From the NCBI GenBank assembly GCA_019326865.1, contig GCA_019326865.1_4101.1: a DNA stretch of 64,000 nt; one strand, written 5' to 3'. This document shows, in pieces, positions 2,844-35,470 of the stretch. The notes beneath the pieces are model-generated. The model saw only the letters and a program-made list of their open reading frames with translations, made no database searches and was not told the origin of the DNA. Position 1 is the stretch's first letter. The number at the start of each line of letters is the position of its first letter. This DNA comes from a phage. Both the position numbers and the translations under genes were made by a program.

Positions 2844-2975
2844 AAAAAAGTGGTTGACTTCGGTCAGCCATTTTGCTATTATATATTCATTGAGAGATAG
2901 CTCACTAGCCCACAGGGTGCGGGAGTGTATCTATTATATAAGTATTGAGTACTGAAAACTATTTTAAAAGTACAT
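2844..2975. repeat. intergenic element R copy 1 (terminator-like hairpin + promoter + conserved core)
   Basis: hairpin TGGTTGAC-TTCG-GTCAGCCA with flanking A/T runs; TTGACT(2854)-17-TATTAT; core CTAGCCCACAGGGTGCGGGAGTGTATC. Confidence 0.75.
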
Positions 2976-2986
2976 GTATAAAGTAC

Positions 2987-3014
2987 TTGCAAACTATCTC
3001 AATTGGCGTATAAT
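2987..3014 (+). promoter_or_regulatory. sigma70-like promoter with 5' leader hairpin
   Basis: TTGCAA-16nt-TATAAT; AGGGGAAA..TTTCCCCT hairpin 3028-3046. Confidence 0.55.
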
Positions 3015-3065
3015 GTTTTACATCGAGAGGGGAAACGGTTTCCCCTAGTAATAAGGAATAAAATC

Positions 3066-3449: not shown

Positions 3450-3531
3450 AGTTTACATCAAGGGCGACGGGAAGTTTTAAAAACTTCCCTATAGGGAGAA
3501 TAGTTCTCCCCACTAACAGAGAGAAAACAAA

Positions 3532-3744
3532 ATGGCTAATATCTGCACTGTACTGAAAAATGCAAAACAAGTTTTATTTTCTGATCACGATCATTTAAAC
3601 AAGGATATTACTGGCGTTCGGAATATCAAAGATGTAAAACGTGTTATGGGTATCTATTGCAATATGAAACGTGTCGGCACGTTCGGTAATAAATTTCTAT
3701 ACCAGGCGGGGGATTACAATTTTACACTGACTATCATTAACTAA
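3532..3744 (+). CDS. hypothetical protein (70 aa)
   Basis: ORF track; SD AGAGAGAAA. Confidence 0.6.
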   Translation: MANICTVLKNAKQVLFSDHDHLNKDITGVRNIKDVKRVMGIYCNMKRVGTFGNKFLYQAGDYNFTLTIIN

Positions 3745-6570: not shown

Positions 6571-6705
6571 AAAAAAAGGATTGACTTCGGTCAGTCCTTT
6601 TTGCTATTATATATTCATTGAGAGATAGCTCACTAGCCCACAGGGTGCGGGAGTGTATCTATTATATGTTGGTGGGTGTATTATCTAGTACTGAAAACTA
6701 TTTGA
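6571..6705. repeat. intergenic element R copy 2
   Basis: hairpin GGATTGAC-TTCG-GTCAGTCC; TTGACT(6581)-18-TATTAT; conserved core as in copy 1. Confidence 0.75.
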
Positions 6706-6715: not shown

Positions 6716-6743
6716 TTGCATTGTACTTAGAATCAAGTATAAT
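6716..6743 (+). promoter_or_regulatory. sigma70-like promoter driving an ORF-less structured leader
   Basis: TTGCAT-16nt-TATAAT; followed by about 80 nt with nested inverted repeats and no ORF before the next promoter. Confidence 0.45.
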
Positions 6744-6833
6744 GTTTTACATCAGGACAGGGAACGAAATAAGTAACTTCCCGTTAAGTAGCCCAGGAGT
6801 AAGGCATACGAAAAACTCCCCTGATAAAATAGT

Positions 6834-6862
6834 TTGACAATAGTTTTAAGTACTGATAAAAT
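6834..6862 (+). promoter_or_regulatory. sigma70-like promoter
   Basis: TTGACA-17nt-TAAAAT; cassette homologous to 269-330. Confidence 0.5.
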
Positions 6863-6894
6863 AATCACATCAACTACTGATAAGGAAACATAAA

Positions 6895-7170
6895 ATGCGG
6901 GTTCTTCTGACAGCTAACGAAATCGAGCAAGTACTTACTACTAACCTGGAACAATGGAAACGTGAAGCAGATATCCAGGCGGTTCAATTGTTAAATGAGA
7001 AGTTAACGCCGGATGATTTAAGTAAGATTGTAGATCCTCAATTCTACGAAGATATTCACGACACCGCGTTAAGCGTCGAGGATGTACTAGATAAACACTA
7101 CATTGATACTAATTTACAGGGTTACGGTCGTAAAAATTTTATTACTATTCACGACATTTACAATAATTAA
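6895..7170 (+). CDS. hypothetical protein (91 aa)
   Basis: ORF track; SD AAGGAAAC. Confidence 0.6.
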   Translation: MRVLLTANEIEQVLTTNLEQWKREADIQAVQLLNEKLTPDDLSKIVDPQFYEDIHDTALSVEDVLDKHYIDTNLQGYGRKNFITIHDIYNN

Positions 7171-8362: not shown

Positions 8363-8388
8363 GGCGGGATCTGTTCCCGCCTTTTTTA
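8363..8388 (+). terminator. rho-independent terminator
   Basis: GGCGGGA-TCTGT-TCCCGCC followed by TTTTTT. Confidence 0.7.
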
Positions 8389-8402: not shown

Positions 8403-8657
8403 ATGATTAAGGTAAAACTATCTAAAGATAATATCTTGCGGGTACACTATAAAGCCCCTCAGAGAATCATCACAAAGGCCGTACAGCTTGCGAATGAGTT
8501 TATTAATGGTAATCTATTACCTAGGAAGTTAAGCAACGGAAAACTGCGTGTAATCGATGTAGACACTAACAACAGAATAGTAATAGAGAATACCGGAAAG
8601 ATAAACCTATATGAACACCAACAATATAATAAGAAAATAAAACTAATTAGTCGTTGA
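8403..8657 (+). CDS. hypothetical protein (84 aa)
   Basis: ORF track. Confidence 0.55.
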   Translation: MIKVKLSKDNILRVHYKAPQRIITKAVQLANEFINGNLLPRKLSNGKLRVIDVDTNNRIVIENTGKINLYEHQQYNKKIKLISR

Positions 8658-9580: not shown

Positions 9581-9705
9581 AAAAAAGGGATTGACTCCGG
9601 TCAGTCCCTTTGCTATTATATATTCATTGAGAGATAGCTCACTAGCCCACAGGGTGCGGGAGTGTATCTATTATATAAGTATTGAGTACTGAAAACTATT
9701 TTTAA
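9581..9705. repeat. intergenic element R copy 3
   Basis: hairpin GGGATTGAC-TCCG-GTCAGTCCC; TTGACT(9591)-17-TATTAT; conserved core. Confidence 0.75.
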
Positions 9706-9713
9706 AAAGTACT

Positions 9714-9740
9714 TGCATTGTACTTAGATTCAAGTATAAT
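9714..9740 (+). promoter_or_regulatory. sigma70-like promoter with 5' leader hairpin
   Basis: TTGCAT-15nt-TATAAT; imperfect GGGGGAACGTCCC hairpin; SD AAGGAAT. Confidence 0.55.
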
Positions 9741-9787
9741 GTTTTATATCGAGAGGGGGAACGTCCCTGATAATAAGGAATAAAATC

Positions 9788-10397: not shown

Positions 10398-10585
10398 CAG
10401 TTGAAGAAGTTAAAAAAGTACTGGCAGTTCTACGCTATCATAACCATTGCAAGGTGAAGAATGATTCTGATTATCTTGATTCATCCCTTGAGGAAGACAC
10501 ATTAAACGCAATAAGCTATATGCAAACATTATTAAAACGTATGACCGAAAAGAATAGACCGGACTATATCGGAAATAAAATTTAA
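10394..10585 (+). CDS. hypothetical protein (63 aa)
   Basis: ORF track; ATGA-coupled. Confidence 0.5.
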   Translation: MTVEEVKKVLAVLRYHNHCKVKNDSDYLDSSLEEDTLNAISYMQTLLKRMTEKNRPDYIGNKI

Positions 10586-10593
10586 AAAGTACT

Positions 10594-10620
10594 TGCATTG
10601 TAGTTAGATTAACGTATAAT
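10594..10620 (+). promoter_or_regulatory. sigma70-like promoter with 5' leader hairpin
   Basis: TTGCAT-15nt-TATAAT; GAGGGGAAATGGTTTCCCCTC hairpin. Confidence 0.55.
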
Positions 10621-10671
10621 GTTTTATATCGAGAGGGGAAATGGTTTCCCCTCAAGTCCAGGAGATACACA

Positions 10672-11851: not shown

Positions 11852-11865
11852 CAAAAAAAAAGAAT

Positions 11866-12005
11866 AAAAAGGGATTGACTCCGGTCAGTCCCTTTGCTAT
11901 TATATACGCATAGACAAAAACTAGCCCACAGGGTGCATAGGTGTATCTTAAATATATAGTTAATAACGGTGAGTAACTATCTGCTGGTGGGGTGAAAACT
12001 ATTAA
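11866..12005. repeat. intergenic element R copy 4 (diverged)
   Basis: same hairpin and TTGACT(11875)-17-TATTAT; central part diverged, keeps CTAGCCCACAGGGTGC. Confidence 0.7.
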
Positions 12006-13418: not shown

Positions 13419-13646
13419 ATGATTGATAATAATTTTAAGGGAGTCCCTGTGCGTATTTTAACTCAAGCAGAACACCACGAAAGACTTATCAATAACATGG
13501 CTATGATAATGTATAAGTCCCATGACCGTGGTATTGCCTATAAGCGTGAATTAGTACTGGAACTATTCATTGGAACTAACTTTCAGGAAAGGTATGTCAA
13601 CGATTGGATTTGGTATTTAATTGAAGATATAACGAGTAAACTATGA
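13419..13646 (+). CDS. family A paralog (LGTNYQ motif), hypothetical
   Basis: famA motif IGTNFQERYV; start may be GTG 13446 after SD AGGGAG. Confidence 0.6.
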   Translation: MIDNNFKGVPVRILTQAEHHERLINNMAMIMYKSHDRGIAYKRELVLELFIGTNFQERYVNDWIWYLIEDITSKL

Positions 13647-13837
13647 TCATTTTAAATAAAGAAGAATATCAAGAACTGTTACGTAAAAACTTTGTAAAGA
13701 TTTATAATACAGACACACACGTAGAACGAATGGAGTTATACCTTTTGATTACATTGGGAACTAACTATCAGGAAAGATGGGTGATTCAATATATGGATAC
13801 ATTGAAAAATAAAATATTGTCCACGAGGAAACAATGA
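13643..13837 (+). CDS. family A paralog, hypothetical
   Basis: famA LGTNYQERWV; ATGA-coupled. Confidence 0.6.
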   Translation: MIILNKEEYQELLRKNFVKIYNTDTHVERMELYLLITLGTNYQERWVIQYMDTLKNKILSTRKQ

Positions 13838-14043
13838 AAACTATAACACGAACCCAATCATTCGGACTTATCTTGAAATACATGGACTTAATGGTGGATA
13901 TCAGCAAAGACCTGCCTAAAACTGCAATTGAAGTTGCAAGAGCAGAGATCCGCATGTTGGCTGTACTGAACACAAACCATCAGGAAGAGTATGTTGACGA
14001 TTGGATTCGATTTTTAATAGAAGATATTAAGAGTAAACTATGA
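13834..14043 (+). CDS. family A paralog, hypothetical
   Basis: famA LNTNHQEEYV; ATGA-coupled. Confidence 0.6.
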   Translation: MKTITRTQSFGLILKYMDLMVDISKDLPKTAIEVARAEIRMLAVLNTNHQEEYVDDWIRFLIEDIKSKL

Positions 14044-14252
14044 TTATATTAACACCTGAAGAATATAAGAAACGTTTTAATTCTGTCCAGACTGAAATAT
14101 TACTTATATACCTTTCAAATGCAGATCTTAACTTATCAAGGGTAATGGAGAAGGATTTACTTATGGGTGCATTTTTGGATACAGACTTTCAGGAGTATTA
14201 TGTAGGGGAATACTTTATTGCACTTCAGAACCACATTAAGAGTAAACTATGA
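14040..14252 (+). CDS. family A paralog, hypothetical
   Basis: famA LDTDFQEYYV; ATGA-coupled. Confidence 0.6.
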   Translation: MIILTPEEYKKRFNSVQTEILLIYLSNADLNLSRVMEKDLLMGAFLDTDFQEYYVGEYFIALQNHIKSKL

Positions 14253-14464
14253 TTATTCTAGAAAAATCATATCAATATACTGAACGCATCGCTGCCAGAC
14301 AACTTGAAATCCTCATAATATACGAAGAGACTTCTGATTTAAACTTAGCCGAGGTATTGGAAAATGAAATACTTTTGGGTGCATTCTTGGGAACAGACTA
14401 TCAGGAGTATTATGAGGAAAAGTATTTGTCATCTCTTGAGAAATACGTCAGGAGCAAACTATGA
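14249..14464 (+). CDS. family A paralog, hypothetical
   Basis: famA LGTDYQEYYE; ATGA-coupled. Confidence 0.6.
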   Translation: MIILEKSYQYTERIAARQLEILIIYEETSDLNLAEVLENEILLGAFLGTDYQEYYEEKYLSSLEKYVRSKL

Positions 14465-14688
14465 AACATTTAAGTAATATAGAGAAGAATAAAATTATCA
14501 TTGCTGTAATAAACAAATATTTTACACTTCCACAAAAAGAATGTTTATCTATAAGGGAACACAGGATAAACACCACCGAGATTCGCATGTTGGCTGTACT
14601 GGGGACTAACTTCCAAGAAGGCTATGTTCATGAGCACATCGTTGCACTCACTAATTACATAATGGACAAATGCAATGAACATCATTAA
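14461..14688 (+). CDS. family A paralog, hypothetical
   Basis: famA LGTNFQEGYV. Confidence 0.6.
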   Translation: MKHLSNIEKNKIIIAVINKYFTLPQKECLSIREHRINTTEIRMLAVLGTNFQEGYVHEHIVALTNYIMDKCNEHH

Positions 14689-14899
14689 TAACTTTGAATA
14701 CGAGGCCCGTGTTAAGAGTGCCAGAAAAAAAGAGAACACCATTTACTTCACTATGATGTACTTACAATGGACTGAAATTGAAGAAAAGGTTGCTGAAGTA
14801 TGGATGTTGGAATTCATGGGGACGCAGTATCAGAATAGGTTTGCGGGTGAGTATATCAATGTTCTTATGAAACAAATAGAAAGGAAGGAAAAGAACTAA
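14675..14899 (+). CDS. family A paralog, hypothetical
   Basis: famA MGTQYQNRFA. Confidence 0.55.
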   Translation: MNIINNFEYEARVKSARKKENTIYFTMMYLQWTEIEEKVAEVWMLEFMGTQYQNRFAGEYINVLMKQIERKEKN

Positions 14900-14988
14900 T
14901 GGAGGGATGCTGTACTTTATTGGAACTTTTATATATTCATGAACACATAGTTGCCCTCACAAATCTAATAAAGGATAAATGTAAATGA
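14899..14988 (+). pseudogene. truncated family A remnant (29 codons)
   Basis: encodes MEGCCTLLELLYIHEHIVALTNLIKDKCK, matching only the C-terminal end of 14461..14688. Confidence 0.45.
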
Positions 14989-15242
14989 AACACTTGACTG
15001 ATGATGAACATGAAACTATAATTCGTAAACTAACCCCCATCACAAGGATAGTCTACGGTGATCCCAGCCTCACATGGAACCAAATGCGAGCTAAAGTTAA
15101 TGAGCTATGGTTGCTGTACTTTATGGGGACTCAATATCAAGATAAGTTTTGCACAGAATATATCGAACAATTAACGAATGTTATACAGGATAAACTAAAT
15201 GAACGAATTGTGGAAAAATATGAAAACTTTATCAAGCATTGA
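14985..15242 (+). CDS. family A paralog, hypothetical
   Basis: famA MGTQYQDKFC; N-terminus MKHLTDDEH shared with 17780. Confidence 0.6.
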   Translation: MKHLTDDEHETIIRKLTPITRIVYGDPSLTWNQMRAKVNELWLLYFMGTQYQDKFCTEYIEQLTNVIQDKLNERIVEKYENFIKH

Positions 15243-15471
15243 GTATCAGACTGCCCTCTTCTCTCTTCTAAACACCCTCCGCACGAACAATAAACTTTAT
15301 AATTCACGTGAAGCTGATATTGTCAACGCTGATGTATATCTTAATAAATTTATAGGGACTAACTATCAAGAACTGTTTGTTTTACGATATATCTCTGCAC
15401 TAAGAAACGAAATATCAGATAAAACCCGCCAAGCCAGAAGAGAATGGAAGAGACAATGCAACAAAGACTAA
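15199..15471 (+). CDS. family A paralog, hypothetical
   Basis: famA IGTNYQELFV; start may be ATG 15220. Confidence 0.55.
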   Translation: MNELWKNMKTLSSIEYQTALFSLLNTLRTNNKLYNSREADIVNADVYLNKFIGTNYQELFVLRYISALRNEISDKTRQARREWKRQCNKD

Positions 15472-15707
15472 ATCACAAAATGTATTGTAAACTATTACAG
15501 AATCTAGGACAAAAACACTATGATACAGTATCTGAAATATTACCCTATGATATCATGCGTTTAATTCATAGTGAGGCAGAGATGCTTGTACTGATGACCG
15601 GTACTGATAAAACAGCAATCACCAGATCGATAGAGCAATATATTGATGCACACTGTCAATGTATTAGAACTGAGATATGGAGGCGAGTAAATGAAAGTAC
15701 TGAATGA
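15444..15707 (+). CDS. family A-like divergent paralog, hypothetical
   Basis: position in array; degenerate motif MTGTDKTAI. Confidence 0.5.
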   Translation: MEETMQQRLNHKMYCKLLQNLGQKHYDTVSEILPYDIMRLIHSEAEMLVLMTGTDKTAITRSIEQYIDAHCQCIRTEIWRRVNESTE

Positions 15708-15906
15708 GTATCAGTATCATTGGAGGTTACAAACTATAAGAGGGAAAGTTGTTAGTATTTCTTTAGACAAGTCTATTGCACAAGAGGACAAATGTGTTAT
15801 AATAGCTGAAATGAAGTTGGGTGTATTTGTAGGAACAAACTATCAAAACATCTACACTGACGTATTATTAAGTGCCTTACGCAACAAGGTGTTATCCAGA
15901 GAATGA
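15691..15906 (+). CDS. family A paralog, hypothetical
   Basis: famA VGTNYQNIYT. Confidence 0.6.
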   Translation: MKVLNEYQYHWRLQTIRGKVVSISLDKSIAQEDKCVIIAEMKLGVFVGTNYQNIYTDVLLSALRNKVLSRE

Positions 15907-16121
15907 GAAAATTAATAGGTTACGAATATGTTAAGCTTCTGAAAACCTGTAGTATTAGCAGGGTAAAGATTCAATCTGATAAGAGTATTCCTGTTGAACT
16001 AAAGTACGCAATGATGGCTGAACTTTATGTAGGTGCACTATTGGGGACAAACTATCAACAAATGTATGTAGACCTATGGGTTGACGCTCTACTGAAAGAG
16101 GTCCAAAGTAAATGCAAATGA
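15903..16121 (+). CDS. family A paralog, hypothetical
   Basis: famA LGTNYQQMYV; ATGA-coupled. Confidence 0.6.
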   Translation: MRKLIGYEYVKLLKTCSISRVKIQSDKSIPVELKYAMMAELYVGALLGTNYQQMYVDLWVDALLKEVQSKCK

Positions 16122-16333
16122 TTCATTTATCTTACTATGAATATCAAAAACGTTTAAATGCATCAAGGGATATAAGGATTAAAATCTACAATAACAAAAG
16201 ATTGAAATCTGAAGCCAAAAAAATCAAAATGATAGAAGCTGAATTATGCAACTTCCTTGGGACGAACTATCAGGATGATAAGGTAACAAACTATCTTAGA
16301 GAACTAATGATTAGTATCAAGAGTAAATGTTAG
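16112..16333 (+). CDS. family A paralog, hypothetical
   Basis: famA LGTNYQDDKV. Confidence 0.6.
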   Translation: MQMIHLSYYEYQKRLNASRDIRIKIYNNKRLKSEAKKIKMIEAELCNFLGTNYQDDKVTNYLRELMISIKSKC

Positions 16334-16337
16334 GCAG

Positions 16338-16595
16338 ATGTACATGAAAATGATTAAATTATCTCAAGCAAAATATAAAGAACGCCTGGAAAAAATTACA
16401 CCTAGACTTAATGAAATCCATCACGGAGAAGTCATTAAACACGGAAATAAGATGATTATGAAACTTGAGTTAAAGGTGGGTGCATTCATAGGAACAAACT
16501 ATCAGGAGTATTATGTAGATGAATACATAATCGCACTTAAGAGATACATTGGAAGAAAACTATATCTACAAACTAAAGAATTGTATTGCAAATAA
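16338..16595 (+). CDS. family A paralog, hypothetical
   Basis: famA IGTNYQEYYV. Confidence 0.6.
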   Translation: MYMKMIKLSQAKYKERLEKITPRLNEIHHGEVIKHGNKMIMKLELKVGAFIGTNYQEYYVDEYIIALKRYIGRKLYLQTKELYCK

Positions 16596-16876
16596 ATGCA
16601 AGGATAATGAATATGAAAATGATCAATTTAAGTAAAGATGAATATACCGAGCGTATGACAAAAATTACGCACAAACGTAATACAATCTATCACAACCCAG
16701 AAATTCAACACAGTAAGAAAATGATTATGATGCGTGAGTTAAAGATGGGTGTATTCTTGGGAACAAACTATCAAGATACAGAAGTAAATCGCTTAATCGC
16801 GGAGTTACTACTGGAAATCAGAGGTAAGCTGTACTTTCATCAAATGACCCAACCACTGAGGTGTACTAAGAAATGA
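16586..16876 (+). CDS. family A paralog, hypothetical
   Basis: famA LGTNYQDTEV. Confidence 0.6.
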   Translation: MQINARIMNMKMINLSKDEYTERMTKITHKRNTIYHNPEIQHSKKMIMMRELKMGVFLGTNYQDTEVNRLIAELLLEIRGKLYFHQMTQPLRCTKK

Positions 16877-17088
16877 TCAACATCACATTGCAAGAAAGAT
16901 TCATCCGAATCAACTATGCAATTACCAAATTAGATGCTACTATAGGATTCCAAAGTCTACCGTTCCAAACAAGAATGATATTAGAGTGCGAAGCTAAATT
17001 GGGTGTACTGTTAGGAACGCAACACCAACAACGATATGTGGAAATCTGGATTGATCTTTTAACCCAAAATGTACATGAGAAAATGTAA
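16873..17088 (+). CDS. family A paralog, hypothetical
   Basis: famA LGTQHQQRYV; ATGA-coupled. Confidence 0.6.
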   Translation: MINITLQERFIRINYAITKLDATIGFQSLPFQTRMILECEAKLGVLLGTQHQQRYVEIWIDLLTQNVHEKM

Positions 17089-17325
17089 ATGAAAAATGAA
17101 ATGATATACTTAACGAATGAAGAGTTTCAAGAGAAGATGTTAAAAATCTATGATAATACTCTTGAGTACGTTCCAAATCAATCAATATATGAAGTGTCTG
17201 CGAATGTATTATTTCAGAAGCTACCATACGTTCTTGGAACGGATAAACAAGAATTTATGGTCAAAAATATGATTGAACATCTTATGATGAGTATTAAGGA
17301 AAAAGTGAATGCAAAAGAAAAATGA
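17089..17325 (+). CDS. family A paralog, hypothetical
   Basis: famA LGTDKQEFMV. Confidence 0.6.
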   Translation: MKNEMIYLTNEEFQEKMLKIYDNTLEYVPNQSIYEVSANVLFQKLPYVLGTDKQEFMVKNMIEHLMMSIKEKVNAKEK

Positions 17326-17572
17326 AATGATATACTTAACACCTGCTGAGTTAACAGAAAGACTAGTTAAATCCAGAAGATATACAAATCAACTTCCTCA
17401 CAACCCAAATCAAACCCCAGCGGAAAGGAGTGCAGAAGTTTTATTCCAATCACTACCATACCTTCTTGGAACTAATAGACAAGAGTATCATATCGAACGT
17501 ATAATTAAATATCTTAAAATTACTATTAAGGAAAAAGTAAATGCTCAAGAATTTAAAAATCCTAACAGTTAA
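17309..17572 (+). CDS. family A paralog, hypothetical
   Basis: famA LGTNRQEYHI; N-terminus near-identical to 17089. Confidence 0.6.
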   Translation: MQKKNEMIYLTPAELTERLVKSRRYTNQLPHNPNQTPAERSAEVLFQSLPYLLGTNRQEYHIERIIKYLKITIKEKVNAQEFKNPNS

Positions 17573-17783
17573 TGAATATCATAAGATTGTAATGAAAACT
17601 AATAGTGCAATTTCTAAAAAATCAAACCCAAAGTACATACTGGAACACACATTTGAAGAACGTCAATTAGCTTTAGTTGAAGCAAAACTTCTTGCACTCT
17701 TAGGAACAAACTATCAGGAAGAATACATCAGAAAACTAATATACCTTTTAACTAAACACATCAGGAAAAGAAAAAAAGCATGA
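17541..17783 (+). CDS. family A paralog, hypothetical
   Basis: famA LGTNYQEEYI. Confidence 0.6.
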   Translation: MLKNLKILTVNEYHKIVMKTNSAISKKSNPKYILEHTFEERQLALVEAKLLALLGTNYQEEYIRKLIYLLTKHIRKRKKA

Positions 17784-18010
17784 AGCACTTGACAGATGAT
17801 GAACATGGGCTTATAGTAATGGATGTAATCAACATCGAATACAAAAAGTTGATACGCTATCGTTGTTATGAAGATAAGCAACTAGTTCTAGCAGAACAGA
17901 AGTTGTTTCGACTCTTAAACACAAACTTCCAAGCACAATACGAAGAATCGTATATGTACCTTTTGGCGAGGAAAGCAAAAAGAGATTATGAAAATTTTAA
18001 GCAAAGGTGA
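17780..18010 (+). CDS. family A paralog, hypothetical
   Basis: famA LNTNFQAQYE; ATGA-coupled. Confidence 0.6.
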   Translation: MKHLTDDEHGLIVMDVINIEYKKLIRYRCYEDKQLVLAEQKLFRLLNTNFQAQYEESYMYLLARKAKRDYENFKQR

Positions 18011-18209
18011 TTCAGTAATATTACTTATAGAGAGTTCAAATAAATTCTTAAACATAACACTGTCTGATATAGATGAAGATGATAAAGAAGTACTGAGAGC
18101 AGATTTAAGAGTACTGTTACATCTCGGAACAAACCTACAAGAAGAATATGTAGAGTACTACATTGATGAACTTAAAGAATCAGTACTGAGAAGATGCAAA
18201 TGCGAATGA
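17988..18209 (+). CDS. family A paralog, hypothetical
   Basis: famA LGTNLQEEYV. Confidence 0.6.
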   Translation: MKILSKGDSVILLIESSNKFLNITLSDIDEDDKEVLRADLRVLLHLGTNLQEEYVEYYIDELKESVLRRCKCE

Positions 18210-18421
18210 TTACCGACGAAGAATACCTAACAATTATAAATGGATTGTTTTTGAAGTTGTTTGTTATTAACACATCAGATATACCAGATATGGATAAAAT
18301 TATTAAGAGAAATGAAATCTATGTTCTAGCTACCCTGGGAACTAACTATCAAGAATGCAATATTAATGATTATATTAATACACTTAAAGGAGCGATTGAA
18401 CTAAAATGCCAAAACCACTAG
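18194..18421 (+). CDS. family A paralog, hypothetical
   Basis: famA LGTNYQECNI. Confidence 0.6.
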   Translation: MQMRMITDEEYLTIINGLFLKLFVINTSDIPDMDKIIKRNEIYVLATLGTNYQECNINDYINTLKGAIELKCQNH

Positions 18422-18621
18422 GAACAGCAGAATACATTGAACTCATGGGATTACACTTCTCATCCTTTCAGAAACTTATGCGAGAATCAAAGAATGATTT
18501 AGAATATACCATCAGAGGTTCAGATTTAAGAATGCTTCTCACCCTAGACACAGATTCCCAAGAGAGATTTGTCAATGAGCATATTAGAGCACTTTTAATG
18601 GAAATTAAAAGTAAACTATGA
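18406..18621 (+). CDS. family A paralog, hypothetical
   Basis: famA LDTDSQERFV. Confidence 0.6.
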   Translation: MPKPLGTAEYIELMGLHFSSFQKLMRESKNDLEYTIRGSDLRMLLTLDTDSQERFVNEHIRALLMEIKSKL

Positions 18622-18833
18622 AGGTAATATCAAACCAAGAGTACTTGGCACTATTCAGGAAGAATAATCACAAATATATGGCACTTGATTCAAGAACTGA
18701 TATAGGGGAACTTGAAAAAAATCTTTTGCGTTCAGAGATGATAGTACTGACACTCTTAGGAACACAACATCAAGAGAGAACTGTTGATTCATATATTGAG
18801 ATTCTTAAGAAGCTTATACAGGAAAAACTATGA
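18618..18833 (+). CDS. family A paralog, hypothetical
   Basis: famA LGTQHQERTV; ATGA-coupled. Confidence 0.6.
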   Translation: MKVISNQEYLALFRKNNHKYMALDSRTDIGELEKNLLRSEMIVLTLLGTQHQERTVDSYIEILKKLIQEKL

Positions 18834-19060
18834 GAATCATAACACAAACAGACATATTTAAGTTAGCAAGGGAACATACATCTGAAATTGATGCTATAGT
18901 ATCAAAAAGTTACAATGACCCTTATACACAAGATGTGCACTACAATGAATTATGGGTGTATATACTTTTAGGTACAAATTATCAAGAGCAAGCAGTACAG
19001 AAGTATTTGGCAGCTTTAAGTACTGCTACTGCTAATAGTATAGGTATTAAAAAATGCTAG
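18830..19060 (+). CDS. family A paralog, hypothetical
   Basis: famA LGTNYQEQAV; ATGA-coupled. Confidence 0.6.
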   Translation: MRIITQTDIFKLAREHTSEIDAIVSKSYNDPYTQDVHYNELWVYILLGTNYQEQAVQKYLAALSTATANSIGIKKC

Positions 19061-19290
19061 TACTGACAGAACTAGAAATGTATCATAGATTTAATAAGTA
19101 CTATCATTTACTTAAGCCTATACAGAGGATTAAATGTCCATTTGAAGAGAAACAGGTATTAATTTATGAGCATAAGTTATTTGTATCATTAGGTACGAAT
19201 GAACAAGAGTATTATTTGAAGTTGTACTTAATTACTTTAATTGAATTGATTAATCACAAAACACAGAAAGCTAAGAAATCTAAAAAATGA
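19054..19290 (+). CDS. family A paralog, hypothetical
   Basis: famA LGTNEQEYYL. Confidence 0.6.
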   Translation: MLVLTELEMYHRFNKYYHLLKPIQRIKCPFEEKQVLIYEHKLFVSLGTNEQEYYLKLYLITLIELINHKTQKAKKSKK

Positions 19291-19625
19291 AAACTAATAT
19301 TCAACTCAAGGTATACATATCTTATGAATCTATATACATCAAATGCAGTCTATGTAAAGATGTAATGGATTATAAAGGTAAGCCATTCACAATTACTTAC
19401 AGTCTAACAGGAGGCTTTTATATATCTTTTGTTGATTACGAAAATAAAATATACAAGCACATTGATATTAAAGATTTAAGTACCTTGTCAGATGAGGAAT
19501 ACTTTCAAGAATCATTAGTATGGGATTTAGAGTTTCCTATGACATTAGTACACAAAATGATAGTACTAATGAAAGAAACTAAACCTGAGCCGAGTGGTTA
19601 TGAAGAATTCATTATTGAGTATTAA
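19287..19625 (+). CDS. family B paralog (acidic-FQxS motif), hypothetical
   Basis: famB SDEEYFQESLVWD; sits inside family A array. Confidence 0.6.
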   Translation: MKTNIQLKVYISYESIYIKCSLCKDVMDYKGKPFTITYSLTGGFYISFVDYENKIYKHIDIKDLSTLSDEEYFQESLVWDLEFPMTLVHKMIVLMKETKPEPSGYEEFIIEY

Positions 19626-19637
19626 GAGTACTGATAT

Positions 19638-19853
19638 ATGAAAAGATTATCATACAAAGATTACAGTAAACTTATCAGTACTTTACAACCAGAAATTAGA
19701 AGAATTAATTATCTTCCTATATCTAACGAAGAACGTGTAGTACTGAAAAATGAGTTAATATTAAAACGCACAGTAGGTACTAACTATCAAGATAATAGTG
19801 TTTGCGATTTAATTAGAGGGTTAATGATCACAATAAAGGCCAAGTGCTATTGA
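19638..19853 (+). CDS. family A paralog, hypothetical
   Basis: famA VGTNYQDNSV. Confidence 0.6.
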   Translation: MKRLSYKDYSKLISTLQPEIRRINYLPISNEERVVLKNELILKRTVGTNYQDNSVCDLIRGLMITIKAKCY

Positions 19854-19859
19854 CAGTAC

Positions 19860-19888
19860 TTGACGGAGCTTTTCATTACTGATATAGT
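19860..19888 (+). promoter_or_regulatory. sigma70-like promoter
   Basis: TTGACG-17nt-TATAGT upstream of 19918. Confidence 0.45.
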
Positions 19889-19917
19889 ATACTAACGTTA
19901 ATCATAGGGTAGAAATT

Positions 19918-20163
19918 ATGTTAAAATTTTTAAATTTCCTTATCGTCTTGTGTATTGTTCTTGGGATTGCACCGTTTGTACTGGTGTATATGGATTCAGA
20001 TGAAATGCAAAAGATGAATTGCACAAAGACGGGACAGAGTAGAGAAGAGACGATTCTTATGCCTGTTACTGTTATTGTTAATAATATGCCCATTACAAAC
20101 ATGGTCCCTACCCTAACGACAACGTACCAGTACTCTTGTACAGACGGGGAGAGGTGGAGATGA
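19918..20163 (+). CDS. hypothetical membrane protein (81 aa)
   Basis: ORF track; N-terminal hydrophobic helix FLNFLIVLCIVLGIAPFVLVY. Confidence 0.55.
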   Translation: MLKFLNFLIVLCIVLGIAPFVLVYMDSDEMQKMNCTKTGQSREETILMPVTVIVNNMPITNMVPTLTTTYQYSCTDGERWR

Positions 20164-27300: not shown

Positions 27301-28029
27301 ATGAAATATAAAGAATTTTGTATAAAAACATGGATGTACACTGGTGAATTGCTTACGTGCTGTAATTTGTACAAGCGTGATGTAAACTTCACAAAGGACA
27401 AAGTTATCAAGTATGAAAATTCTCAATTTTATTTGATGGATTTTAGTACTGGGTTTCATGGTAAATCAACCGAGATGCTGGATTATACATTAATGGATGA
27501 GGCGGCACTATTTCAAGAATCATTAGTATTTGATAAGAAGTACATCTGTACATTAGAAGAGATGATTGAAATTCAGAATAAAATTAAATGTGTTCACAGG
27601 GAATGTATTGATAAATGGTGTAAAACTGGTGAAACTGATTTTAGTAATCATTTTAATTTAGGAGAAAGAGTGATGGAATTTGATTTTTTAATATCAGTGC
27701 ATACATTCAAGAATACACATCAGTACTTTTGTAATTTAAACAAAGGTGATTTAATGCACAGTGCGAATGAGTATATTCATTTTATGGATGGTAAATTCAC
27801 ATTCATTGATTACAGTTCATTACAATATCCACATCAAGATATGCCGGACTATACAATAATGAATGAGGCTGAACTATTTCAAGCTTCATTAGTATTTGAC
27901 AAGAAGTACATCTGTACATTTGAAGAAGTAATTACTATACAAAATGAAATGAAGGAGTATGCATCTTTGAATAAACCCAATGAAGGTATTAATCAAGAAT
28001 ACAAATTCAATATAGAGATTCCAAAATGA
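27301..28029 (+). CDS. family B paralog with internal tandem duplication
   Basis: two motif copies: DEAALFQESLVFDKKYICTLEEM and NEAELFQASLVFDKKYICTFEEV. Confidence 0.6.
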   Translation: MKYKEFCIKTWMYTGELLTCCNLYKRDVNFTKDKVIKYENSQFYLMDFSTGFHGKSTEMLDYTLMDEAALFQESLVFDKKYICTLEEMIEIQNKIKCVHRECIDKWCKTGETDFSNHFNLGERVMEFDFLISVHTFKNTHQYFCNLNKGDLMHSANEYIHFMDGKFTFIDYSSLQYPHQDMPDYTIMNEAELFQASLVFDKKYICTFEEVITIQNEMKEYASLNKPNEGINQEYKFNIEIPK

Positions 28030-28385
28030 CATATGATTATTCTATGTACTATTATAAGTTACCTAAAGGATGGGACTTGTGCTGTAATCTTATTAAGGGA
28101 GACTCGGAACATGAGTTGAATTTATATATGCACTACAAAGATTCTTGTTTTAAATTTATTCATGTATCACATGATGACTATGACTATGAATCTGAGAGTC
28201 TTATAGATTATACAGTACTGGACGATGGCGAACTATTTCAGGAAGCATTAGTGTTTGATAAGAATAAGTACTCCTGTACATTTGAAGAAATGGTTTCTTT
28301 GCAAACTGAAATGAAGAGATTTGAAAAAGAAAACGTATTTAATCCATCCCCATCAAGAACGAATAATTATTATTTCAATATATGA
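28026..28385 (+). CDS. family B paralog, hypothetical
   Basis: famB DDGELFQEALVFDKNKYSCTFEEM; ATGA-coupled; third copy of the unit in 27301..28029. Confidence 0.6.
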   Translation: MTYDYSMYYYKLPKGWDLCCNLIKGDSEHELNLYMHYKDSCFKFIHVSHDDYDYESESLIDYTVLDDGELFQEALVFDKNKYSCTFEEMVSLQTEMKRFEKENVFNPSPSRTNNYYFNI

Positions 28386-28394
28386 GATTATAAA

Positions 28395-28877
28395 ATGACA
28401 TTACAGAGTTCATTGGAAAAAGCAAAGAAGATTCATGAGTACATGAATATGGCAAAAGAAGGTTCAGTTTACGGTGTTTTCAAAGACACAAGTACTCAAT
28501 ATTATGTGCCGGATAACCTCCTTTATAATGACTACTCAGATACAGAAACGTGCGTACTGGATACCGACCCTAAAGATTATGAATGTTTCATTGATATGCA
28601 TTATGAGTACATGGTCTATATTAATGATGCAGATATTACCATATACAGTACTGACTGCGATTCTGATGACATTATAATTCCTAGTGAAGTTCTGAATGGC
28701 CCGTGGGATAGTGAAGAGTATTACTTCCAACAAAGTACTGTATACAATGAAGAAGTACTTGATGTTATTATAATTATGTGGTACTTTAAAAATATTGGTT
28801 CTGATAACTTCTATTTCGATTACAGATACGTAAAGAAAGCTATAGATAACGATATTAATAAACCACACGGGGGTTGA
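28395..28877 (+). CDS. family B paralog (WYFK subgroup)
   Basis: famB DSEEYYFQQSTVYNEE...WYFKN; N-terminus MTLQSSLEKAKK. Confidence 0.65.
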   Translation: MTLQSSLEKAKKIHEYMNMAKEGSVYGVFKDTSTQYYVPDNLLYNDYSDTETCVLDTDPKDYECFIDMHYEYMVYINDADITIYSTDCDSDDIIIPSEVLNGPWDSEEYYFQQSTVYNEEVLDVIIIMWYFKNIGSDNFYFDYRYVKKAIDNDINKPHGG

Positions 28878-28878
28878 A

Positions 28879-29349
28879 ATGAGTTTAGAAAGAGCATTAG
28901 AGATTGCGAAGTTAATTGATTTATGCAGCAAAGAAATTGTATCAAATTGTCTCAATGGATATCTATTCAAGGAAGGTAAATCATATTGTCGAATGAGATA
29001 CGATGACAGTAGTGAGTATATTCACATGTATGAAGAAGACCTTGATGATTCCGAAATAACACTGAATGGGTGTGATGTTAATCTGGAAGATAATTACATT
29101 TACTTCAGTCGTGGTGCTGATATTTTAATACAAGAAACATCAATTCAACATGTGAATCCAGATGTATATCTTCCATATTCAGTACTGGATAATGACTGGG
29201 GAAGTGAAGAGGTTTACTTTCAGCATAATACTATCTACGATGAAGATGTGCTTGACAAGCTTGTCATTCTGTGGTACTTTAAGAACACTGATACTCCCAA
29301 CTTCTATATGGATTTGGATCTACTACGAGTTATAAAAGAGGATATATGA
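28879..29349 (+). CDS. family B paralog (WYFK subgroup)
   Basis: famB GSEEVYFQHNTIYDED...WYFKN. Confidence 0.65.
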   Translation: MSLERALEIAKLIDLCSKEIVSNCLNGYLFKEGKSYCRMRYDDSSEYIHMYEEDLDDSEITLNGCDVNLEDNYIYFSRGADILIQETSIQHVNPDVYLPYSVLDNDWGSEEVYFQHNTIYDEDVLDKLVILWYFKNTDTPNFYMDLDLLRVIKEDI

Positions 29350-29789
29350 GTTTAGCAAGTGCACTTAAACTGGCACACAAAATACATCACTTCCACGATA
29401 ACATAAAAAGTGGGTTCAATGGTGATAAAGTAAGTGCATTGGGTAATGAGTATTATCTATCAGGTATAAAGACATACTCTGATGATATTTTACTTATGGG
29501 ACATGATAAAGACAATACTATACAGTACTCTTCATGTAGTCAATATACTAGTTTTATGGTATATATTCCAGGTACTAAGATTACGTTTGACACATCAAAT
29601 TCACCTGTTGACTTCGGGGTACTTGATGGCCCGTGGGGTACTGAAGAGTATTACTTCCAACAGAGTCTTATTTTCAACCAAGAAATTCTTGATTCCTTGG
29701 TTGTTTTGTGGTACTTTAAGGAATTGAATTTTGAACCATTCTTTCTTGACTGGGGAGCATGTGAGTATTTAAGTACAGGGGATTTGTAA
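29346..29789 (+). CDS. family B paralog (WYFK subgroup)
   Basis: famB GTEEYYFQQSLIFNQE...WYFKE; ATGA-coupled. Confidence 0.65.
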   Translation: MSLASALKLAHKIHHFHDNIKSGFNGDKVSALGNEYYLSGIKTYSDDILLMGHDKDNTIQYSSCSQYTSFMVYIPGTKITFDTSNSPVDFGVLDGPWGTEEYYFQQSLIFNQEILDSLVVLWYFKELNFEPFFLDWGACEYLSTGDL

Positions 29790-30277
29790 TGTCGTTACAA
29801 AGTGCATTAAAAGAAGCAAAGAAAATCCATGAGTACATGATTATGGTACAAGAAGGTTCAGTCCCAGGTGTGTATAAAACATCTGATACTGAATTTTTTG
29901 TAAAAGACCGTGACGATTATGATGAGTCAGAGATATGTGCAGAAACGTTAGTACTGCACACTGATACTGGTGATAGTGATAACTGTGAATATCATATGTA
30001 CAATCAATACATTAGTTATTGCCGTAATGAAGATATTACCATCTACAACACAGATATTGATGCTGATGACACTATCATTCCGTATTCAGTACTGGAAGGT
30101 CCGTGGGATAGTGAAGAGTATTACTTTCAGAATAGTACTATCTACAATGAAGAAGAACTGGATGTTATTGTGATTATGTGGTACTTTAAAAGTATTGACT
30201 CCAGTAGTTTCTATTTTGATTATGAATATGTAGAGAATACAGTAGGAGAAGGTAATGTCATTACAAAGTGCTCTTGA
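29789..30277 (+). CDS. family B paralog (WYFK subgroup)
   Basis: famB DSEEYYFQNSTIYNEE...WYFKS. Confidence 0.65.
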   Translation: MSLQSALKEAKKIHEYMIMVQEGSVPGVYKTSDTEFFVKDRDDYDESEICAETLVLHTDTGDSDNCEYHMYNQYISYCRNEDITIYNTDIDADDTIIPYSVLEGPWDSEEYYFQNSTIYNEEELDVIVIMWYFKSIDSSSFYFDYEYVENTVGEGNVITKCS

Positions 30278-30701
30278 AAAAGCAAAAGAACTACATGGAT
30301 ACTTTGAAGATATAAAGGCAGGAAAGTTCAAAGAAGTATACAAAGCCGAGAACGGTAACTACTACAAAGATGAAATATATAATAATTCCGTTGGTGTAAG
30401 GGTTATTCTTGGGTTGAATTCCAATAGTCCTGTGTCGTTTTCTGAATACAATAGAGATGCAGAATTCATTAGTTATGTTGAAAATGGTAGCATTCGTTTT
30501 ATTAATAGACAAAAACCATTAATTTTGAATTATGAAGTTCTGGATGGTCAATGGGATAATGAAGAGTATTACTTCCAAAACAGTACTGTATACGACGATG
30601 AAGTACTTGAAGCATTAGTTATTATGTGGTACTTCAAGAGTATTAACTGTCCTCGATTTTATTTGGATTTCGAAGAACTTGGTAAAGATCCAGAGGTATA
30701 G
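30255..30701 (+). CDS. family B paralog (WYFK subgroup)
   Basis: famB DNEEYYFQNSTVYDDE...WYFKS; SD AGGAGAAGG. Confidence 0.65.
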   Translation: MSLQSALEKAKELHGYFEDIKAGKFKEVYKAENGNYYKDEIYNNSVGVRVILGLNSNSPVSFSEYNRDAEFISYVENGSIRFINRQKPLILNYEVLDGQWDNEEYYFQNSTVYDDEVLEALVIMWYFKSINCPRFYLDFEELGKDPEV

Positions 30702-31017
30702 AATGAAAAACTTATTCAGTGTTCAGTACGTTCCAGGTGAAATTAGTTTATTGTATCTCTTTGACCATGATAATTCATTATTACTAGTAGTAAAGAAATG
30801 TCAAGCTAGTTCGTTTGTTGAATACATTCACGATAATGAATATATACCTGATTTTTTAGAGTGCGATTATTACGATGATCATGAATCATTTATTTTTCAG
30901 GAATCGCTAGTATGGGACAAATCGATTAACTTCTTTACGTTAATTGAATTACAAAAGCAAGTGAAGTATCATTGGGATTATTTAATTACACAGGATTACA
31001 TTGAGATAGAAATATAA
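30679..31017 (+). CDS. family B paralog, hypothetical
   Basis: famB DHESFIFQESLVWDKS. Confidence 0.55.
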   Translation: MVKIQRYRMKNLFSVQYVPGEISLLYLFDHDNSLLLVVKKCQASSFVEYIHDNEYIPDFLECDYYDDHESFIFQESLVWDKSINFFTLIELQKQVKYHWDYLITQDYIEIEI

Positions 31018-31325
31018 TGACTAAAAATGAATTTGATTCACTTTGTACTGTTTATAATTCATTAACAGAAATACCTAACTTTATTAGTTATATTTCAGCT
31101 TTAAATCACATTATGCATAGTTTTGAACAATCGTTTGAGGAGAAATATGCTGGAAGAAAAGTTCTATGTCATATGCCAATGTACTTAGGAGATGGTGAGC
31201 CTTACACTACAAGTACTACATGTGAAATAAAAAAATATAATATATTATTGGGTACTATAGAATTCACAGTATCCAATGGCGGTAGTTATATGTACTTTAG
31301 AGATGGAGTGGTTGAATTATTATGA
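31017..31325 (+). CDS. hypothetical protein (102 aa)
   Basis: ORF track; no family motif. Confidence 0.5.
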   Translation: MTKNEFDSLCTVYNSLTEIPNFISYISALNHIMHSFEQSFEEKYAGRKVLCHMPMYLGDGEPYTTSTTCEIKKYNILLGTIEFTVSNGGSYMYFRDGVVELL

Positions 31326-31771
31326 GTTACGAAAGTGCAATCAAGAAAGCAAATGATATTCTACGCGTCGTTCAATTCTTCAAAGAAAATCCTGAATACG
31401 TAGATGATAAAAACCAAGAGCACGATGAGAGATTGAGACGAAAAATTATCTCTTTATTTGACACTAATAAAGATAATTGGAGTCTAATTGAGTTAGCATA
31501 CGATTATATTTCATTGAACCGAAATGATGATGTAGTTAAGATAGAAAGGCATGAATCAGAAGAATCTTTTAAAATTTCAGATATTTTATCCCTGAGTACT
31601 GAAGAAGGGTACTTCCAGGGTAGCACTCTTTATAATGAAGAAACACTTGACAATCTATGCACATTCAGTGTAATATATCAGAAATCTGTACTAGATATAT
31701 TTTATCTTGACACTGCTGAACTGCATACCCTAACCAATTTTGTTACTACCGAAGAGGCTACATTCGAGTGA
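31322..31771 (+). CDS. family B paralog, hypothetical
   Basis: famB STEEGYFQGSTLYNEE; ATGA-coupled. Confidence 0.6.
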   Translation: MSYESAIKKANDILRVVQFFKENPEYVDDKNQEHDERLRRKIISLFDTNKDNWSLIELAYDYISLNRNDDVVKIERHESEESFKISDILSLSTEEGYFQGSTLYNEETLDNLCTFSVIYQKSVLDIFYLDTAELHTLTNFVTTEEATFE

Positions 31772-32304
31772 TGAAAGTTAACATTAATGACTTTGATGCA
31801 TTACAAGATTTATCAAAAAAGATTCGCACCATCGTACCAGTACTTAAAAAATGCAGTACTGGTTTAATCGATCCTAGTTCTGTTGTCAATGAGAAGTACA
31901 ATTTTCATCGTGTATTACAGGGGACAGGTGCATTTCAGAAGTGTGAGGTACGTGAGAAACATGTAATTGATACATCGTTGTTTTCTATTGGTGCACCTGT
32001 GTCAAACAATACTATTTTCCTGGATGCATCTGGAAATATTCAACAATTAACATTTAAGAAAAGGAAAAAGAATAATAACATTGGTGTGTACGCGATGAAG
32101 TGGGGACAGCCAGCGTTGATGCGTGACATTCACATTCCTAAGTACAATTTCAATGCATTTGAAGAACAGTGTTTTCAACTTTCTTGTACTGACCCTGACT
32201 ATGCTATCATTCAATTCTATATGGAATTGCAGATTGCATTTAATAGTAATTTGTATATTAACTTATTGGCAATGAACATAGATGAAGTATTCAAAAACAT
32301 TTAA
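31768..32304 (+). CDS. family B paralog, hypothetical
   Basis: famB AFEEQCFQLSCTDPD; ATGA-coupled. Confidence 0.55.
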   Translation: MMKVNINDFDALQDLSKKIRTIVPVLKKCSTGLIDPSSVVNEKYNFHRVLQGTGAFQKCEVREKHVIDTSLFSIGAPVSNNTIFLDASGNIQQLTFKKRKKNNNIGVYAMKWGQPALMRDIHIPKYNFNAFEEQCFQLSCTDPDYAIIQFYMELQIAFNSNLYINLLAMNIDEVFKNI

Positions 32305-32500
32305 TCGAATTGAATACATGAGAACTGTGAGAGCGGTGTGGAATATATGGTACACTACTAAACCAAAAATGGATTACCATGATTTTAAGCTCTTGTTCTT
32401 TGTTGGCTCTAACAAACAGGATGTTGCAATGAAGGGTTATATTCAGCACTTACAGGAACTAATCCAGAAGAGAATATATGAAAATAATAGACCAAAATGA
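32282..32500 (+). CDS. family A paralog, hypothetical
   Basis: famA-like VGSNKQDVAM; stray copy inside family B array. Confidence 0.5.
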   Translation: MKYSKTFNRIEYMRTVRAVWNIWYTTKPKMDYHDFKLLFFVGSNKQDVAMKGYIQHLQELIQKRIYENNRPK

Positions 32501-32669
32501 CATTGCTAAACTATTCAATATATATTCTACTAGAATGATGCAAACAGATTCATATAGTACTAAATTCAAAGAGTTGAAAGTACTGATGTACTTGGGAACA
32601 CAATATCAGGAACAAGTTATTTTAGAATATATTAATTCATTAAAGAAGGATATCCGTGATGTACGATGA
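32478..32669 (+). CDS. family A paralog, hypothetical
   Basis: famA LGTQYQEQVI. Confidence 0.55.
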   Translation: MKIIDQNDIAKLFNIYSTRMMQTDSYSTKFKELKVLMYLGTQYQEQVILEYINSLKKDIRDVR

Positions 32670-33812: not shown

Positions 33813-33817
33813 AACAA

Positions 33818-35411: not shown

Positions 35412-35470
35412 CACCCACCGATTCTTTGTGATATAATCCCTTTATATTAATTTTAAAGGGTTATAACACA

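Follow-up and report, generated by a model that had tools for sequence, protein, structure and literature searches.

A conserved, very probably pseudoknotted RNA domain follows early promoters of Asteriusvirus, T7-like phages and enterobacterial prophages

The closest described systems to the leader RNA reported here are the phage antitermination RNAs put and nut. The put RNA of HK022 is ~70 nt long, lies just after PL and contains an RNA triplex, with a −10-like pause element next in line; it consists of two stem-loops arranged in a V shape and contains no pseudoknot (PMC9378689). The element described here is likewise a structured RNA directly after an early promoter of phages relying on the host RNA polymerase, lies in its temperate relatives just after the leftward early promoter as putL does, and has triplex potential, with an A-rich loop 3 over stem S1 to be compared with the triplex of put stem I. 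In contrast to put, it is predicted to form a pseudoknot, and it shares no sequence similarity with put; a search of the HK022 genome with the pseudoknot model gave no match. Whereas putL leads into a −10-like pause element, the element usually leads into a real promoter. The put RNA, which counters termination in cis by RNA alone, without factors and through the zinc-binding domain of β′, has proven activity and is not coupled to boxA, whereas our element is often coupled to boxA and its role is proposed from its setting.

In lambda nut and in rrn leaders (boxB–boxA–boxC), a structured element and boxA lie in an early leader, in one orientation and at a fixed short distance, an arrangement that the element resembles. 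In SfV-type prophages, it occupies the same place relative to repressor, promoter and first terminator as lambda nutL. It differs from nut in that a pseudoknot domain replaces the boxB hairpin with its GNRA-like, N-bound pentaloop, in that its virulent phages carry no adjacent N-like arginine-rich protein and its downstream genes are unrelated, and in that the copy at the locus studied here lacks boxA. The preQ1-I, preQ1-II and SAM-II aptamers are H-type pseudoknots whose loop 1 is a single nucleotide and whose loop 3 is A-rich. Together with the T4 gene 32 leader pseudoknot, they share H-type topology and 5′ leader location with the element, which differs from them in having no covariance-model match, no expression platform and no tie to a gene family and in carrying two extra helices, P1 and P2. 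The PeSL units of T4-type phages combine a promoter, a leader stem-loop and a small ORF, and their conserved ends allow shuffling (PMC2839356, PMC4122927). The cassettes around the element fit this type. The element has the promoter and initial leader bases in common with them, is flanked by promoter sequences and has moved from one phage genus to another as a unit. A PeSL is a simple hairpin with a gene, whereas the element is gene-less, forms a multi-helix pseudoknot and is conserved beyond the phages that share cassettes.

We analysed 64,000 nt of phage DNA (the window, by which we mean this whole stretch). Its identity of ~87–90% to Asteriusvirus genomes (PBECO4, 121Q, UB and others) over the tested stretch identifies it as the early region of an Asteriusvirus, a PBECO4/121Q-like jumbo coliphage; in those Asteriusvirus records that annotate a direct terminal repeat, the corresponding region lies inside it. 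The first 12 kb of the window are a mosaic of cassettes, each with a sigma-70-type promoter, a leader of the form A(C/U)AUCGAGAGGGGAAA..UUUCCCC, a Shine–Dalgarno (SD) sequence and a small ORF. The exception is the promoter at 6716–6743, which is followed by ~85 nt without a credible ORF. The features of this locus are:

6716–6743, plus strand: upstream early promoter (promoter P1), −35 TTGCAT 6716–6721, 16-nt spacer, −10 TATAAT 6738–6743
6751–6756, plus strand: 5′ strand AUCAGG of the predicted closing helix P1, pairing with 6820–6825
6757–6784, plus strand: predicted P2 hairpin, GGGAA 6760–6764 with UUCCC 6778–6782, 13-nt loop, found in MFE and centroid folds
6788–6809, plus strand: predicted pseudoknot stem S1, GUAGCC 6788–6793 with GGC 6803–6805 and UAC 6807–6809, A6806 bulged, found in the MFE fold
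6796–6799, plus strand: 5′ strand GGAG of the predicted pseudoknot stem S2, pairing with CUCC 6816–6819, found in the centroid fold
6810–6815, plus strand: loop 3 (L3) GAAAAA, the A-rich strand crossing S1
6816–6825, plus strand: S2 3′ strand CUCC 6816–6819, then P1 3′ strand CCUGAU 6820–6825
6834–6862, plus strand: second promoter, TTGACA 6834–6839, 17-nt spacer, TG-TAAAAT 6857–6862, 11/12 match
6895–7170, plus strand: first downstream gene, SD sequence, ATG at 6895, 91 aa, PHROG 14947 with no assigned function
8363–8387, plus strand: strong intrinsic terminator in the same rightward unit, GGCGGGATCTGTTCCCGCC plus T6

The −35 of the upstream promoter matches the consensus at three of six positions, and therefore this promoter is missing from a simple promoter scan. 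It differs by one mismatch, in the spacer, from the promoter at 9713–9740 that drives the ORF at 9788 (direct-repeat families D1/D5), and the orthologous elements in A73, muut and PBECO4 stand behind canonical TTGACA/TATAAT promoters. The transcript likely starts at A6749 or A6751. It includes the second promoter, and the order promoter–element–promoter recurs in A73, muut, PBECO4 copy A, L083, L095, and T7/T3 (A1–A2). An earlier, sequence-only reading had noted a promoter at 6716–6743, an ORF-less stretch (given as ~80 nt) and a second promoter at 6834, all of which are present, and had pointed to the homologous cassette at 9707, which does run into an SD sequence and ATG. Its description as a gene-less leader with an expanded hairpin also holds: the 5′ part of the element, AUCAGGACGGGGAAC, is a variant of the standard AUCGAGAGGGGAAAC leader, and no conserved ORF lies over the element. 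The only ORFs that overlap it in the window are a TTG ORF (6721–6837), which starts within the promoter, and a minus-strand GTG ORF (6752–6868), and both are disrupted by 1–2-nt indels in relatives.

We found no intrinsic terminator between 6744 and 6895 and no recognisable processing site after the element in the window. With no terminator before 6895, transcription from 6716 should pass the second promoter into the 91-aa gene. A specific tie of the element to this gene is not apparent; other copies precede unrelated genes. Further along the same unit, an ORF of 84 aa (8403–8657) with an SD sequence and no promoter begins 16 nt past the terminator at 8363–8387, so that some polymerases must read through. 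Terminator and ORF together are a candidate read-through target of the element, a link that we infer from this arrangement.

Several other observations concern the surroundings of the element. Promoters of the window come in two flavours, exemplified by 6716 and 6834, which may differ in strength or timing: (i) AAAAAGTACTTGCA..TATAAT with a −35 of TTGCAw and a 16-nt spacer, and (ii) canonical TTGACA..TATAAT, or TTGACA-17-TG-nATAAT. Window cassette leaders (e.g. 2965–3045 and 10571–10651) start with AUCGAGAGGGG.., and the T7 A1 transcript starts identically (AUCGAGAGGGACACGG; L085 498–520); early promoter and initial transcribed region may be a module common to very different coliphages. A composite repeat at 2844–2969, 6572–6697, 9581–9706 and 11855–11914 contains a terminator-like hairpin, AAAGGGATTGACTCCGGTCAGTCCCTTT, with a −35 TTGACT in its loop and stem, followed by a TATTAT −10 and ~60 conserved nt (..AGCCCACAGGGTGCGGGAGTGTATCTATTATAT). 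It stands upstream of the element, of ordinary cassettes and of PBECO4 copy A (L006 1255–1335), and may represent a terminator/promoter composite or another small RNA. Paralogous small-gene arrays at 13500–20000 and 27400–36700 (direct-repeat families D2, D8, D9, D11–D13, D15 and D17–D20) suggest repeated tandem duplication of early or accessory genes.

The nested pairing proposed in the sequence-only reading is confirmed for ATCAGG 6751–6756 with CCTGAT 6820–6825 and for GGGAA 6760–6764 with TTCCC 6778–6782; that pairing list omitted the main feature, a predicted pseudoknot at 6788–6819. This H-type pseudoknot combines one half from the MFE fold (S1, 6 bp) with one half from the centroid fold (S2, 4 bp), and S1 encloses loop L1 (C6794), the 5′ strand of S2 and loop L2 (UAA 6800–6802). 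P2 is the variable insert of the family. Taken alone, the fold of the window copy is not beyond chance, and only comparison with other members makes it significant: its MFE is −15.6 kcal/mol (z = −1.29), 23 of 200 shuffled sequences are equally stable, and a closing helix of at least 6 bp arises in 145 of 2000 shuffles. A covariance model of 34 members matches the window at 6782–6826 with 56.9 bits (E = 3.4e-11), a score that is partly circular, as the window sequence is one of the 34 training rows. By its sequence, 6751–6825 is a complete family member, in which P1, P2, S1, S2 and L3 are all present. Neither the covariance model nor sequence search finds further copies of the element in the 64-kb window.

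Within Asteriusvirus, UB, ELP-22 and PBECO4 all retain the element at the syntenic position; among these three phages, the spacer of the second promoter exists as two unrelated alleles, and PBECO4 has an extra upstream ORF. By BLAST with 90 nt, each Asteriusvirus genome has two copies separated by ~10.6 kb, or four if its record gives the terminal repeat twice. The same search returns copies of 87–91% identity from a small number of Vequintavirinae (A73, W70, A7_1, A5-4) and Stephanstirmvirinae (muut, outra, EmilieFrey), and element identity ranges from 87 to 99% across Asteriusvirus copies and phages of other subfamilies. The conserved block spans the transcription start to just before the next −35, and flanking promoters and genes differ. 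Relatives keep the P2 stem as ACGGGG/CCCCGU, the P2 loop takes indels and substitutions, and GUAG[C/U]C covaries with AAG[G/A]C among close copies. Among relatives, 1–2-nt indels break all reading frames on both strands. Several GenBank records annotate a minus-strand hypothetical protein across the element (ELP22_0051 at 832–951 of L002, SD-phage records, A71_225 of A7_1); these short ORFs are probably spurious, because the frame is not kept among relatives. Some Asteriusvirus-like metagenomic contigs carry a third, divergent copy on the minus strand (9741–9785 of L147, OERD01000139.1; 5673–5717 of L130), with S2 CCAG/CUGG and a weak P1, which runs directly into an SD sequence and gene with no second promoter.

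We gathered members of the wider family by (i) pattern scans of IMG/VR and metagenomes, (ii) BLAST (416 phage records) and (iii) a scan anchored on boxA. Some pattern hits were set aside as coding or as lacking promoter context, and those also lacked S2 complementarity; the BLAST-derived and boxA-anchored sets are free of this selection. A pattern family from soil metagenomes (L099, L144 and others) was left out as probably coding, because its substitutions are 3-periodic. Members were recognised by an S1 of the form GUAGNC with GN′C(N)UAY, a form that the window copy has with a C–G middle pair. The core consensus consists of S1 GUAGNC with GN′C(A)UAC, an L1 of 1 nt, an S2 of 4–5 bp, L2 UAA and L3 GAAAAA. 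A weak BLAST hit led to T7-like Kayfunavirus phages, which have the same core between two host-type promoters, with GCCUG/CAGGC replacing GGAG/CUCC. In addition to T7-like phages, we distinguish class C, a third sequence class without L2, of the form AAGUAGCC-G-S2-GGCAUAY-GAAnn-S2′.

Covariation among related phages had been named beforehand as a check on the locus; we ran it, and all four helices covary across the three sequence classes. In 34 distinct cores, 94.7% of the pairs are formed, compared with 20–40% when partners are slid by 1–3 columns, and the covariation score is 0.40 versus 0.13 in shuffles (0/500). S1 is paired at 94.6%, and its middle pair is AU in 20, UA in 7, CG in 5 and GC in 1 core. 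Three to four S2 pairs change on both sides, and S2 exists in at least nine versions, including GGAG/CUCC, GCCUG/CAGGC, GCUUG/CAAGC, ACCUG/CAGGU, CCAG/CUGG, CCUUG/CAAGG, CCCGG/CCGGG, CCGGU/ACCGG and CCAGU/ACUGG. Versions of P1 elsewhere include GCGGC/GUCGC, AGGUCAG/CUGACCU, AUCGGUU/AAUCGAU, GCGACG/CGUUGC and AGGAAC/GUUCCU, and hairpins equivalent to P2 also covary (GGC..GCC in class C, CCGG..CCGG in T7-like phages). For 24 full elements of T7-like phages, the four helices are 92.1% paired, and 11 pairs show double-sided changes versus 3.2 ± 1.1 in shuffles. For 21 distinct class C elements, collected without a pairing filter, the four helices are 95.2% paired versus 28–40%; P1 pair 11/72 is GC in 11 and AU in 10 of them, and S2 pairs occur as UA, CG and GC. 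Over the three classes together, helices are 92–95% paired versus 20–42% in slid controls. The G–U pairs are valid only on the plus strand, so that the fold is that of the transcript. Its unpaired positions (UAAG.., L2 UAA, the bulged A and GAAAAA) are common to T7 and the jumbo myovirus, a conservation that points to specific recognition; L3 varies to GAACAA in some T7-like phages and to GAAGU, GAAUA or similar in class C. From these comparative data, we consider the family to be, with high confidence, a conserved, pseudoknotted RNA domain that is absent from Rfam.

All compared members follow an early sigma-70 promoter at a distance of at most ~60 nt and are on the strand that it transcribes; in the window, the −10 is at 6738–6743 and the domain begins at 6751. 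Hosts of the family are Asteriusvirus, some Vequintavirinae and Stephanstirmvirinae, T7/T3/K1F-like phages, a T5-like phage and prophages. T7 itself (L085), T3 and phiA1122 are members, and T3 has the element filling the space from the annotated A1 −10 (467–472) to the annotated A2 −35 (572–577). In T7-like phages, the P1 5′ strand (GUCAA) is the loop of a small upstream hairpin, and in T7 and T3 the P1 3′ strand UUGAC is transcribed from the A2 −35 hexamer TTGACA (L085 535–598; L020 515–580). T7-like P1 variants keep the pairing (GUCAC/GUGAC, GUCAUC/GAUGAC, GUCGGU/ACCGAC, GAUUAG/CUAAUC), and phages with another P1 sequence have the next promoter placed further downstream. In T7, another hairpin comes first, and the element begins at a distance of ~40 nt from the 5′ end. 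A downstream promoter is absent from many members.

Class C, as located by BLAST, occurs in the temperate phages SfV, SfII, SfIV, ST64B, SEN34 and ZF40 and in phages of Yersinia, Klebsiella and Aeromonas; the T5-like Providencia phage PR1 has it in its terminal repeat. In SfV and ST64B, the element is the first sequence transcribed from a promoter past a cI-like repressor gene and its terminator and precedes the first leftward early gene; SfV has an annotated terminator after the element. In the related L273 promoter, a palindrome in the spacer suggests repressor/operator control. Prophages in 1,419 of 5,426 complete E. coli genomes (26%) carry the class C pseudoknot–boxA module, in each case without annotation. 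At the one E. coli locus that we examined (2013C-4187, L326 ~3530–3630), it lies in a CPS-53/SfV-like prophage just downstream of a cI-like repressor gene.

The coupling to boxA is evident from a scan of IMG/VR with the boxA-type motif GCTCTTTAACAATCTGG alone, which gave 113 loci. The pseudoknot is found within 450 nt upstream of boxA at 52 of these loci, in 45 cases at a distance of 39–42 nt, and at none of the 113 does boxA lie upstream of the knot. This boxA-anchored scan also revealed new T7-like variants with L3 GAACAA. A boxA follows the knot in T5-like PR1 (after 19 nt), in L042 and L050 (~25 nt) and in T7, where it comes after A3. No GCUCUUUAACAA-like boxA lies near the window copy or anywhere in the early region of the window, and the 11 matches with at most two mismatches elsewhere in the window are at chance level; all Asteriusvirus and rV5-like copies likewise lack a boxA nearby.

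We compared the element to known RNAs and signals. The window contains no tRNA or tmRNA, and Rfam 15, at gathering and permissive thresholds, gives no match at the element in the window, at T7-like loci or at class C loci; this empty search argues against hammerhead, pistol, ToxI and known riboswitches. A hidden small ORF or peptide is contradicted by frames broken through 1–2-nt indels, by the lack of a conserved start and by the non-conserved minus-strand ORF. The GGAG of S2 is not conserved (T7-like phages and class C substitute GCCUG, CCAG or CCCGG), and we therefore dropped the ideas of an SD decoy and of a CsrA or RegB target. The element is not an RNase III site, as T3 R0.3 is annotated elsewhere (822–875). 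A mimic of a host RNA was rejected, as none of 5,426 E. coli genomes matched the window version; among 185,579 species genomes scanned with a strict pattern, two contigs only were hit, both with T7-like promoter/leader sequence and apparently phage DNA. A link to a particular downstream gene was rejected as well, the neighbours being unrelated proteins without Pfam hits and with PHROGs of unknown function only. Full-text literature searches by topic and sequence string, with older subscription papers outside their scope, found the T7 A1–A3 sequence printed and the fold undescribed.

We tentatively propose that the element is a cis-acting leader RNA of the nut/put kind, which would make the host RNA polymerase resist termination, an inference from its position and association only. 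Host sigma-70 RNA polymerase would start at 6716–6743, and 6751–6825 would form the 5′-proximal domain of the early transcript. The domain would fold while leaving the polymerase, with P1 joining the first transcribed bases to bases past the knot and P2 inside. Transcription would continue past the domain, through the second promoter and into the 91-aa gene and beyond, and the folded domain, alone or with host factors, would make the polymerase resistant to pausing and termination in cis. In many relatives, it would cooperate with a boxA/NusB–NusE site 40 nt downstream. Polymerases from the first promoter could then pass downstream promoters and terminators, in the window for example the one at 8363–8387. 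Some findings count against antitermination. The copy in the window, like every Asteriusvirus and rV5-like copy, is without a neighbouring boxA, and the fold is unlike the two stem-loops of put. In T7-like phages, only A1 transcripts carry the element, and A2 and A3 transcripts do not. In BLAST searches, only few Vequintavirinae and Stephanstirmvirinae records matched, a patchy distribution that looks more like that of an accessory element than that of a regulatory site belonging to the core. The next −10 lies anywhere from ~20 to 45 nt past the domain, and no fixed pause geometry is evident. To our knowledge, no unusual termination resistance has been reported for T7 A1, which has been studied in vitro for decades, and we regard this as weak evidence.

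Part of the evidence would also fit a role in stability or processing of the 5′ end, where the knotted domain would shield early mRNAs or a leader fragment from attack by RppH and RNase E. Compact pseudoknots with an A-rich loop 3 are of a type known as mechanically stable, and the element has this build; P1, which begins within 1–8 nt of the predicted start, closes off the 5′ region, and the element takes the place of an ordinary leader hairpin with the same first bases, as a sturdier version of the simple GGGGAAA..UUUCCCC hairpins at other window promoters would do. A plain hairpin suffices in dozens of neighbouring cassettes, however, and the T7 element, which is not at the very 5′ end, the unpaired nucleotides kept from T7 to the jumbo myovirus, the boxA spacing of 39–42 nt and the nutL-like position are left unexplained or point to specific recognition, so that we consider this role, including its sturdier-hairpin form, unlikely. 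A free decoy is hard to square with a coupling to boxA, itself a co-transcriptional signal, that is so tight and always in one orientation. Such a decoy would be a domain made abundantly from the earliest and strongest promoters, perhaps processed free, that would act in trans by titrating a host protein such as a defence nuclease, a toxin or a global RNA-binding protein. Pseudoknotted antitoxin RNAs are the precedent, pseudo-ToxI binding and titrating ToxN. Such a function would agree with the absence of a gene of its own in the window, with two to three copies per Asteriusvirus genome, doubled by the terminal repeat, and with a patchy, mobile-looking distribution across unrelated phage families. 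It would also agree with the T3 RNase III site (R0.3) annotated downstream in the leader, which, if cut as in T7, would release the element. The window element has neither a terminator nor a recognisable processing site past it, Rfam offers no antitoxin or sRNA match, and the genome scans turned up no look-alike in a host; together with the boxA coupling, this makes a trans-acting RNA improbable in our view. The discrete small RNA considered in the sequence-only reading is for its part without sequence support: no terminator follows, and other members lead straight into a gene or boxA; a stable fragment might still arise by processing.

The H-type topology, in which L1 is one nucleotide long and L3 is A-rich, the conserved loop nucleotides and the location in leaders, including the PL-like leftward early leader of temperate phages, are features that a ligand-sensing, riboswitch-like pseudoknot tuning early transcription to the state of the host would also have. 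We hold this to be very improbable: no Rfam riboswitch matches even at E up to 10, and in place of a conserved terminator/anti-terminator or SD-sequestering platform, a promoter, boxA or gene comes next. The remaining reading takes the element as a remnant of a deleted cassette, or as a DNA-level UP element or operator of the downstream promoter. Both ends of the element resemble the standard leader at 9741–9775, the early region is made of recombining promoter cassettes (PeSL model, PMC2839356), and in T7 and T3 the P1 3′ strand coincides with the A2 −35 hexamer. Against it, compensatory changes keep four RNA helices, G–U pairs fit one strand only, the element is conserved amid different flanks in several phage families, and the downstream promoter is missing from many members. 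Covariation has already largely refuted this reading, and we give it hardly any credence; the recombination remnant that had been suggested from the sequence is contradicted by the 87–99% conservation, the varied flanking promoters and genes and the compensatory changes in four helices.

If the structure is right, the element would be a cis-acting RNA that is uncatalogued and occurs very widely in phages of enterobacteria, among them the model phages T7 and T3 and common prophages of E. coli, Shigella and Salmonella. Its placement and its coupling to boxA raise a testable question, namely by what means phages that lack N prevent termination by the host polymerase within long early leaders and operons. 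With somewhat more reserve than for the antitermination role itself, we suggest that the domain could be a third kind of phage antitermination RNA beside nut and put, which would reprogram the RNA polymerase of E. coli, either by itself or together with NusB/NusE at boxA. If so, it would serve virulent phages of very different kinds (T7, T5-like, rV5-like, jumbo) as well as prophages that a quarter of E. coli genomes carry, and would have gone unnoticed in T7, within the most-used transcription template of the field. T7 A1 leaders are used in expression and in vitro systems; as a portable part, the element could provide insulation or read-through. The family is worth experimental follow-up, for which T7 is the easiest member.
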